Assembly (NCBI RefSeq): GCF_011045215.1
Contig: NZ_CP049201.1
Source of the DNA: Escherichia coli
Lineage (GTDB): Bacteria > Pseudomonadota > Gammaproteobacteria > Enterobacterales > Enterobacteriaceae
DNA length: 64,000 bases
Strand: one strand, 5' to 3'
Numbering within the stretch: position 1 is the first letter of the stretch; every line of letters begins with the position of its first letter. The notes beneath the pieces are model-generated. The model was not told where the DNA came from. It made no database searches and was given only the letters and a program-made list of their open reading frames with translations. The position numbers and the translations under genes were made by a program. Shown piece by piece: positions 46,114 through 48,396 of the stretch.

Positions 46114-48396
46114 ATGTCCGAGCTTAATGAAAAGTTAGCCACAGCCTGGGAAGGTTTTACCAAAGGTGACTGGCAGAATGAAGTAAACGTCCGTGACTTC
46201 ATTCAGAAAAACTACACTCCGTACGAGGGTGACGAGTCCTTCCTGGCTGGCGCTACTGAAGCGACCACCACCCTGTGGGACAAAGTAATGGAAGGCGTTA
46301 AACTGGAAAACCGCACTCACGCGCCAGTTGACTTTGACACCGCTGTTGCTTCCACCATCACCTCTCACGACGCTGGCTACATCAACAAAGCGTTGGAAAA
46401 AGTTGTTGGTCTGCAGACTGAAGCTCCGCTGAAACGTGCTCTTATCCCGTTCGGTGGTATCAAAATGATCGAAGGTTCCTGCAAAGCGTACAACCGCGAA
46501 CTGGACCCGATGATCAAAAAAATCTTCACTGAATACCGTAAAACTCACAACCAGGGCGTGTTCGACGTTTACACTCCGGACATCCTGCGTTGCCGTAAAT
46601 CCGGTGTTCTGACCGGTCTGCCAGATGCTTATGGCCGTGGCCGTATCATCGGTGACTACCGTCGCGTTGCGCTGTACGGTATCGACTACCTGATGAAAGA
46701 CAAATACGCTCAGTTCACCTCTCTGCAGGCTGATCTGGAAAACGGCGTAAACCTGGAACAGACTATCCGTCTGCGCGAAGAAATCGCTGAACAGCACCGC
46801 GCTCTGGGTCAGATGAAAGAAATGGCTGCGAAATACGGCTACGACATCTCTGGTCCGGCTACCAACGCTCAGGAAGCTATCCAGTGGACTTACTTCGGCT
46901 ACCTGGCTGCTGTTAAGTCTCAGAACGGTGCTGCAATGTCCTTCGGTCGTACCTCCACCTTCCTGGATGTGTACATCGAACGTGACCTGAAAGCTGGCAA
47001 GATCACCGAACAAGAAGCGCAGGAAATGGTTGACCACCTGGTCATGAAACTGCGTATGGTTCGCTTCCTGCGTACTCCGGAGTACGATGAACTGTTCTCT
47101 GGCGACCCGATCTGGGCAACCGAATCTATCGGTGGTATGGGCCTCGACGGTCGTACCCTGGTTACCAAAAACAGCTTCCGTTTCCTGAACACCCTGTACA
47201 CCATGGGTCCGTCTCCGGAACCGAACATGACCATTCTGTGGTCTGAAAAACTGCCGCTGAACTTCAAGAAATTCGCCGCTAAAGTGTCCATCGACACCTC
47301 TTCTCTGCAGTATGAGAACGATGACCTGATGCGTCCGGACTTCAACAACGATGACTACGCTATCGCTTGCTGCGTAAGCCCGATGATCGTTGGTAAACAA
47401 ATGCAGTTCTTCGGTGCGCGTGCAAACCTGGCGAAAACCATGCTGTACGCAATCAACGGCGGCGTTGACGAAAAACTGAAAATGCAGGTTGGTCCGAAGT
47501 CTGAACCGATCAAAGGCGATCTCCTGAACTACGATGAAGTGATGGAGCGCATGGATCACTTCATGGACTGGCTGGCTAAACAGTACATCACTGCACTGAA
47601 CATCATTCACTACATGCACGACAAGTACAGCTACGAAGCCTCTCTGATGGCGCTGCACGACCGTGACGTTATCCGCACCATGGCGTGTGGTATCGCTGGT
47701 CTGTCCGTTGCTGCTGACTCCCTGTCTGCAATCAAATATGCGAAAGTTAAACCGATTCGTGACGAAGACGGTCTGGCTATCGACTTCGAAATCGAAGGCG
47801 AATACCCGCAGTTTGGTAACAACGATCCGCGTGTAGATGACCTGGCTGTTGACCTGGTAGAACGTTTCATGAAGAAAATTCAGAAACTGCACACCTACCG
47901 TGACGCTATCCCGACTCAGTCTGTTCTGACCATAACTTCTAACGTTGTGTATGGTAAGAAAACGGGTAACACCCCAGACGGTCGTCGTGCTGGCGCGCCG
48001 TTCGGACCGGGTGCTAACCCGATGCACGGTCGTGACCAGAAAGGTGCTGTAGCGTCTCTGACTTCCGTTGCTAAACTGCCGTTTGCTTACGCTAAAGATG
48101 GTATCTCCTACACCTTCTCTATCGTTCCGAACGCACTGGGTAAAGACGACGAAGTTCGTAAGACCAACCTGGCAGGTCTGATGGATGGTTATTTCCACCA
48201 CGAAGCGTCCATCGAAGGTGGTCAGCACCTGAACGTTAACGTGATGAACCGTGAAATGCTGCTCGACGCGATGGAAAATCCGGAAAAATATCCGCAGCTG
48301 ACCATCCGTGTATCTGGCTACGCAGTACGTTTCAACTCGCTGACTAAAGAACAGCAGCAGGACGTTATTACTCGTACCTTCACTCAATCTATGTAA
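46114..48396 (+). CDS. pflB: Pyruvate formate-lyase (glycyl radical enzyme), 760 aa
   Basis: ORF track 760 aa; glycyl radical motif RVSGYAVRF near C-terminus. Confidence 0.98.

Follow-up and report, generated by a model that had tools for sequence, protein, structure and literature searches.

A 750-codon open frame antisense to pflB in Escherichia coli, very probably a non-coding by-product of pflB codon usage

Here we present an analysis of the pflB locus within a stretch of 64,000 nucleotides of Escherichia coli DNA (contig NZ_CP049201.1 of RefSeq assembly GCF_011045215.1), which we refer to as the window. The gene pflB encodes pyruvate formate-lyase, and its identity and coordinates were confirmed against the RefSeq annotation of E. 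coli genomes, in which focA and pflA are its flanking genes. The listing of the window's open reading frames (ORFs) places a 750-aa frame with a TTG start on the minus strand opposite pflB (Table 1), inside a stop-free stretch of 753 codons (46138..48396). This agrees exactly with the initial annotation, which had described the minus strand opposite pflB as free of stop codons for 2.25 kb and as holding a 750-codon frame.

The open frame opposite pflB and the codon usage of the gene

The antisense codons are in exact register with the codons of pflB, of which they are the reverse complements ((48385-46114) mod 3 = 0). In this register an antisense stop (TAA, TAG or TGA) is possible only opposite the sense codons TTA (Leu), CTA (Leu) or TCA (Ser), hereafter called stop-forming codons, and an antisense ATG is possible only opposite CAT. 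The single stop-forming codon of pflB, at Leu8, closes the frame at one end, and a TAA directly outside the pflB stop codon bounds it at the other. The other two antisense frames of pflB reach at most 144 and 39 codons without a stop, compared with 753 in the frame under study.

The antisense translation mirrors the codons that pflB prefers. For example, CTG is read as Gln on the opposite strand, GAA and AAA as Phe, and GAC, AAC, TAC and CAC as Val; likewise GGT and CGT are read as Thr, CCG as Arg and ATG as His. The 750 residues include 115 Val, 82 Phe, 69 Thr, 63 Arg and 56 Gln, so that Val and Phe together account for 26 % of the translation, with only 5 Lys. The frame contains no Met because pflB uses no CAT, none of its 14 His codons being of that form. 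The richness in Val, Thr, Phe, Arg and Gln that had been noted at the outset is therefore real, while the accompanying label of low complexity is only partly apt: its composition has an entropy of 3.87 bits, compared with 4.17 bits in PflB, and the translation is biased without containing repeats. A Pfam search of the antisense translation returned no family at E <= 1, and the frame has no homologues other than antisense translations of pflB.

As an independent reference for high expression we used the K-12 ribosomal-protein genes together with tufA, fusA and rpoA, and 45 genes of the window were mapped by BLAST for the comparison of their codon adaptation index (CAI) with their antisense stops. 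Against this reference pflB stands at the top of the 45 window genes with a CAI of 0.812, followed by rpsA with 0.807. Leu is encoded by CTG at 55 of 62 positions in pflB, with TTA used once and CTA never, and Ser by TCT or TCC at all but 4 of 36 positions, with no TCA. Across the 45 genes, the density of stop-forming codons falls steeply as CAI rises (Spearman rho = -0.87, p = 1e-14), and genes of higher CAI have a larger part of their antisense frame open (rho = 0.74). Both the top CAI of pflB and the correlation with stop density agree with the initial proposal that the frame reflects the strong codon bias of a highly expressed gene.

We used a resampling test in which the PflB protein was held fixed and its synonymous codons were redrawn, and calculated the probability of an antisense open run of at least 753 codons. 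This probability is 5e-14 under uniform codon usage, 6e-7 under the average usage of the window, 0.02 under the usage of the highly expressed reference and 0.38 under the codon frequencies of pflB itself. The synonymous-codon simulation that the initial annotation had suggested as a check thus reproduces the frame with highly expressed or pflB usage and fails to do so with average usage. Rare codons make up 1.6 % of pflB vs 3.1 % of the reference, and the number of expected stops drops accordingly from about 4 to about 2. When stop-forming codons are compared with the other rare codons, pflB shows no specific depletion relative to the highly expressed reference (Fisher p = 1.0).

The lone TTA of pflB sits in a 5′ stretch of non-optimal, AT-richer codons, and Leu8 is encoded by TTA in 51 of the 79 orthologs described below. 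The three most codon-adapted genes of the window, pflB, rpsA and ompF, each carry a TTA in their first 15 codons: in rpsA it is found at Leu13 (37635-37637), where it is the only stop-forming codon of the gene, and in ompF at Leu15 (about 12729-12731). It is well established that bacterial genes relax or reverse their codon preference at the 5′ end, and a TTA within 15 codons of the start looks like a conserved 5′-end use of non-optimal, AT-rich codons. Because this TTA lies within the first codons, the antisense frames run almost the full length of the gene, the one opposite rpsA being open for 545 of 557 codons. We infer that it is the 5′ codon preference, and not selection on the antisense frame, that puts the stop of this frame at its margin in pflB.

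The same effect is seen in genes outside the window. In-register antisense stops are wholly absent from 14 of the 27 independent highly expressed K-12 genes (tufA with 395 codons, rplB with 274 and rpsC with 234 are examples), and the antisense frame of fusA is open for 528 codons; the weakly expressed gspA and chiA, from the same locus as K-12 reference genes, carry 15-17 antisense stops. The pflB frame is the longest because no other gene with a CAI near 0.8 is as long as pflB.

These observations are consistent with a simple mechanism. Given the known translational selection in E. coli, TTA, CTA and TCA would be among the most avoided codons in highly expressed genes, and pflB would rank among the most codon-adapted genes of the genome. 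Such a preference may leave a gene of this length with one stop-forming codon, here the TTA at Leu8, located in the first codons, where non-optimal AT-rich codons would be tolerated or even favoured. With the lone TTA confined to the first few codons, the antisense frame would be left open for almost the whole of pflB.

Conservation, signals of expression and database entries

Constraint on the antisense frame was judged by the gain of stops across orthologs. A scan of one genome per species in the Enterobacterales yielded 80 pflB loci, of which 79 were full length and used. PflB is 89-100 % identical across these orthologs. The antisense frame, by contrast, is open for 753 codons in only 15 of the 79 and carries additional stops in the remaining 64, with 2-3 stops in 30 orthologs and at least 4 in 34, and with the highest counts (20-24) in orthologs from Xenorhabdus and Pantoea. 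The longest antisense run has a median of 423 codons. The frame breaks already at about 93 % nucleotide identity, with a stop at codon 338 in Citrobacter youngae and three stops in Enterobacter asburiae, and the frame-breaking stops all arise through changes that are synonymous in pflB. Over the same 79 orthologs, all minor codons are depleted about 3-fold in pflB, and the stop-forming share of the minor Leu and Ser codons is 0.357 in pflB vs 0.325 in the flanking focA and pflA.

Each sense third position is an antisense first position, so that a change that is synonymous in the sense gene is by construction almost always nonsynonymous on the other strand, and the ratio of nonsynonymous to synonymous substitution rates (dN/dS) has almost no synonymous-synonymous sites to draw on. 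Between the window and K-12-type alleles, all 31 differences alter the antisense amino acid and 23 of the 31 are synonymous in pflB. The same pattern holds in eight E. coli lineages: most of their differences from the window are synonymous in pflB, and essentially every difference alters the antisense residue. The window allele has no identical counterpart in the complete E. coli genomes; the best match, O157:H7, reaches 99.8 %, and pflB shows 5 synonymous differences from O157. Two of these five, ATC to ATA at codon 607 (47932-47934) and TAC to TAT at codon 693 (48190-48192), are unique to the window among 9 alleles, and both run towards non-preferred codons.

No sigma-70-like site was found by consensus scan on the minus strand in 45900-48800; the nearest lies at 49513-49485, beyond pflA. 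The frame offers 17 in-frame start-type codons (14 GTG and 3 TTG, no ATG), none of which is preceded at -18..-5 by a Shine-Dalgarno sequence with at least 5/6 matches to AGGAGG, a test that applies to starts other than leaderless or non-canonical ones. An Rfam scan of the whole window revealed no RNA family inside pflB. Published tables of expressed antisense ORFs in the enterohaemorrhagic E. coli (EHEC) strain EDL933 contain no formate acetyltransferase region, while the positive control, 'porin OmpA', was found in them, and the E. coli Ribo-RET small-ORF supplement has no entry for pflB. A literature search on an overlapping gene antisense to pflB returned nothing relevant.

The intergenic region between pflB and pflA contains, at about 48437-48466, a GC-rich hairpin (AAGGCTCCAC-GAAA-GTGGGGCCTT), after which comes a T-run on the plus strand and TTTATTGT on the minus strand. 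This hairpin was read by eye and was not listed by the consensus terminator scan. It is likely the intrinsic terminator of pflB and may be partly bidirectional; on this by-eye reading it lies directly upstream of the antisense frame on the minus strand.

The frame has already entered public sequence collections. In a collection of 5.8 billion sequences, 23 protein clusters are translations of the pflB antisense frame, none of them with a Pfam domain. Examples are 'hypothetical protein ESA_02442' of Cronobacter sakazakii (783 aa), an 'Uncharacterised protein' of S. Typhi (507 aa) and QTN38_006170 of E. cloacae (421 aa). The 70-96 % identity that makes such entries look conserved is inherited from pflB. 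The 23 clusters fit the warning that automated pipelines may call the frame, though RefSeq/PGAP leaves it unannotated: no inspected record carries a gene there. Antisense 'hypothetical protein' calls on conserved genes are the kind of entry that AntiFam was built to flag, and the pflB clusters resemble such spurious calls.

Interpretation and rival explanations

Our conclusion is that the codon usage of pflB gives rise to the frame as a geometric by-product, a shadow ORF that does not code for protein, and we assign this reading a probability of about 0.93. All five features taken here to mark a shadow ORF are found at the locus, namely the register with the sense codons, the codon bias, the outcome of resampling, the lack of any extra depletion of stop-forming codons and the short open runs of the other antisense frames. 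Three features of a functional overlapping gene are absent, namely conservation, a start with a ribosome-binding site, and a protein family or protein-like composition. With no conservation, no start signals and no place in the EHEC candidate tables, there is no evidence for an overprinted gene, and as far as the sequence can tell nothing seems to indicate that the frame is transcribed, translated or selected. Non-stop antisense ORFs in frame -1 opposite highly expressed genes are attributed to Merino et al. 1994 and Silke 1997 (Gene 194:143) in the citations given by Mir et al. 2012 (PMC3454372), and the frame -1 shadow ORF effect is thus an already known phenomenon (Silke 1997; Mir 2012). 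The pflB frame is identical to these shadow ORFs in geometry, in cause (the codon usage of very highly expressed genes) and in behaviour under codon-usage models. It shows no essential difference from them and is merely a very long example.

Several results weigh against this conclusion. Under the usage of the highly expressed reference about 4 antisense stops are expected and 1 is seen. A strict permutation with exactly one stop-forming codon among the Leu positions gives P = 0.03, which is the chance that the lone TTA falls on one of two Leu codons at the extreme 5′ end. We infer that the residual tail probability is explained by the roughly 2-fold stronger codon optimisation of pflB relative to the reference and by the location of the TTA near the 5′ end. 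When Leu8 is left out, stop-forming codons in the 41 closest orthologs are scarcer relative to other minor Leu and Ser codons than they are in the flanks (46/231 vs 459/1065, odds ratio 0.46, p = 2e-6). The frame is also open in 8 of 8 sampled E. coli lineages, and the promoter and Shine-Dalgarno scans were simple consensus searches. We considered a specific avoidance of antisense stops at pflB as the source of the deficit relative to the flanks, and rejected it since the highly expressed K-12 reference shows an equal ratio of stop-forming to minor Leu and Ser codons (23/78; p = 0.18 against the close orthologs). Highly expressed genes in general avoid TTA, CTA and TCA more strongly than they avoid other minor codons.

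It is extremely unlikely that selection keeps the full 750-aa frame open as a genuine overprinted gene that encodes a protein. Its improbability under average codon usage would suit such a gene, as would the argument of Mir et al. 2012 (PMC3454372) that some long ORFs in alternative frames go beyond what codon usage predicts; at pflB, however, the usage of highly expressed genes suffices without specific avoidance of stop-forming codons. An intact frame in all sampled E. coli and in 15 of the 79 species has to be set against the additional stops scattered over the other 64 orthologs while PflB stays about 90 % conserved, which effectively refutes a selected frame, and the polymorphisms that are synonymous in pflB essentially all alter the putative antisense protein. 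A few genomes do carry the frame as a hypothetical protein, but its composition mirrors pflB codon preferences, it matches no Pfam family, and it lacks ATG or Met as well as any Shine-Dalgarno-like sequence or promoter-like site in the consensus scans. We attach a similarly negligible probability to the proposal that base composition alone, through mutation bias or the G+C content of third codon positions (GC3), keeps the frame open without expression-linked codon selection. Stop-forming codons are AT-rich and end in A, and a GC-rich third position would indeed deplete them. The GC3 of E. coli pflB is only about 0.56, however, and Pantoea orthologs with GC3 > 0.6 carry 12-18 stops. Neighbouring genes, which share the compositional context of pflB, contain 15-50 stop-forming codons per 1000 codons vs 1.3 in pflB, and both the resampling with window-average usage and the close tracking of CAI by stop density speak against composition as the sole cause.

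A further explanation, which we regard as improbable, is that a shorter part of the antisense frame is translated weakly from an antisense transcript, starting at an internal GTG, TTG or non-canonical codon, either as pervasive non-functional translation or as a young gene resembling pop. The ORF pop, 603 bp long and antisense to ompA in frame -1 in E. coli O157:H7, is a claimed precedent in identical geometry; it is reported to have a probable CTG start, an experimentally mapped promoter and transcription start site, a Shine-Dalgarno motif and a terminator, as well as ribosome footprints, a signal in Western blots and a phenotype on overexpression (Zehentner et al. 2020, PMC7103648). Like pop, the pflB antisense frame lies in frame -1 within an E. 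coli gene of very high expression and strong codon bias; unlike pop it lacks such sequence signals and is absent from the candidate tables of the same group. Long sub-ORFs would be available in all 8 sampled E. coli lineages, and widespread antisense transcription and translation has been reported in bacteria (PMC7457138). Yet the consensus scan found no promoter-like site on the minus strand, either within the frame or upstream of it, none of the 17 start-type codons has a Shine-Dalgarno-like sequence, and the by-eye pflB terminator hairpin stands in the path of an incoming antisense transcript. The absence of pflB from the EDL933 tables and the Ribo-RET supplement and the lack of conservation across genera point in the same direction. 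We hold it to be very unlikely that some antisense stretch is weakly transcribed and translated under particular conditions from a GTG, TTG or non-canonical codon. Were this the case, weak translation would make a frame created by codon bias into raw material for de novo gene birth in E. coli and its closest relatives, and an unusually long substrate at that, but nothing found here points that way. The Pseudomonas aeruginosa ORFs olg1 and olg2 offer a second comparison. They are described as antisense ORFs of 957 and 1536 nt embedded in annotated genes (Kreitmeier et al. 2022, PMC8850804), and the pflB frame resembles them as a long antisense ORF inside an annotated gene. They differ from it in being reported as translated and under purifying selection, whereas in orthologs the pflB frame is broken again and again, with no sign of constraint on it.

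The reading of the pflB antisense frame as a shadow ORF matters for annotation hygiene: the frame is long enough for naive ORF finders, is already present in public databases and carries a misleading 'conservation'. It also provides a calibrated negative control for overlapping-gene searches. The null model for frame -1 needs codon usage matched to expression, as a null based on average usage would make the pflB antisense frame look significant at about 1e-6.

Other frames and features of the window

Long antisense frames had been noted initially opposite rpsA, pepN, mukB and dmsA as well, and all of them are present in the same in-register frame (Table 1). Further in-register antisense frames are found opposite ompF (265 codons), mukF (300 codons) and dmsB (the whole gene). 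Compared with permutations of the synonymous codons of each gene, the observed runs are within expectation for pepN (P = 0.07), mukB (0.50) and dmsA (0.056). A 392-codon open frame (53667-54845, plus strand) runs antisense across the dmsC-dmsB-dmsA junctions. The gene dmsB contains no TTA, CTA or TCA codon despite a moderate CAI of 0.56, and its stop-free antisense frame is probably a chance effect of small gene size.

Table 1. Positions of the pflB antisense frame, its boundaries and other features of the window.
Feature	Position	Strand	Remark
Antisense ORF opposite pflB	46135..48387	-	TTG start 48387-48385; stop TAA 46137-46135; read as a shadow frame, non-coding
pflB (formate C-acetyltransferase / pyruvate formate-lyase), 760 aa	46114..48396	+	real gene; its codon usage very probably creates the antisense frame
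TTA codon of pflB, Leu8	46135..46137	+	sole stop-forming codon of pflB; its complement is the stop of the antisense ORF
In-frame TAA directly outside the pflB stop codon	48399-48397	-	bounds the open frame on its upstream side
rpsA antisense frame, 552 codons	35979..37637	+	in register with sense codons
pepN antisense frame, 450 codons	6732..8084	+	in register with sense codons
mukB antisense frames, 285 and 279 codons	22463..23320 and 18830..19669	+	in register with sense codons
dmsA antisense frame, 350 codons	55972..57024	+	in register with sense codons
STnc130 small RNA	57331-57465	+	Rfam gathering-score match, between dmsA and serS
naRNA4 (CssrE)	6285-6363	-	Rfam gathering-score match, between ssuB and pepN
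ES036 (CssrF)	15232-15274	-	Rfam gathering-score match, between aspC and gloC

Codon 217 of dmsA (56590-56592, minus strand) is an in-frame TAG in the window and TAC (Tyr217) in the O157:H7 reference, and it truncates the 814-aa A subunit of dimethyl sulfoxide reductase. The exact 61-mer containing this TAG occurs in 0 of 5,426 complete E. coli genomes, and all 2,826 matching records are at 95-99 % identity, without any at 99 % or above. The TAG is thus either a nonsense mutation private to this strain or an error in its sequence.

In the intergenic regions of naRNA4 and ES036, the window differs from the O157:H7 reference by insertions or deletions of about 155-170 bp, which suggests variable elements of the repetitive extragenic palindromic (REP) type. 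Upstream of pflB, the focA frame is open for 113 codons ahead of the annotated start at 45202 (44863-45201, plus strand), through the AT-rich focA-pflB promoter region. The ORF listing accordingly gives 398 aa for focA vs 285 aa for annotated FocA, and a longest-ORF rule would over-extend the gene.

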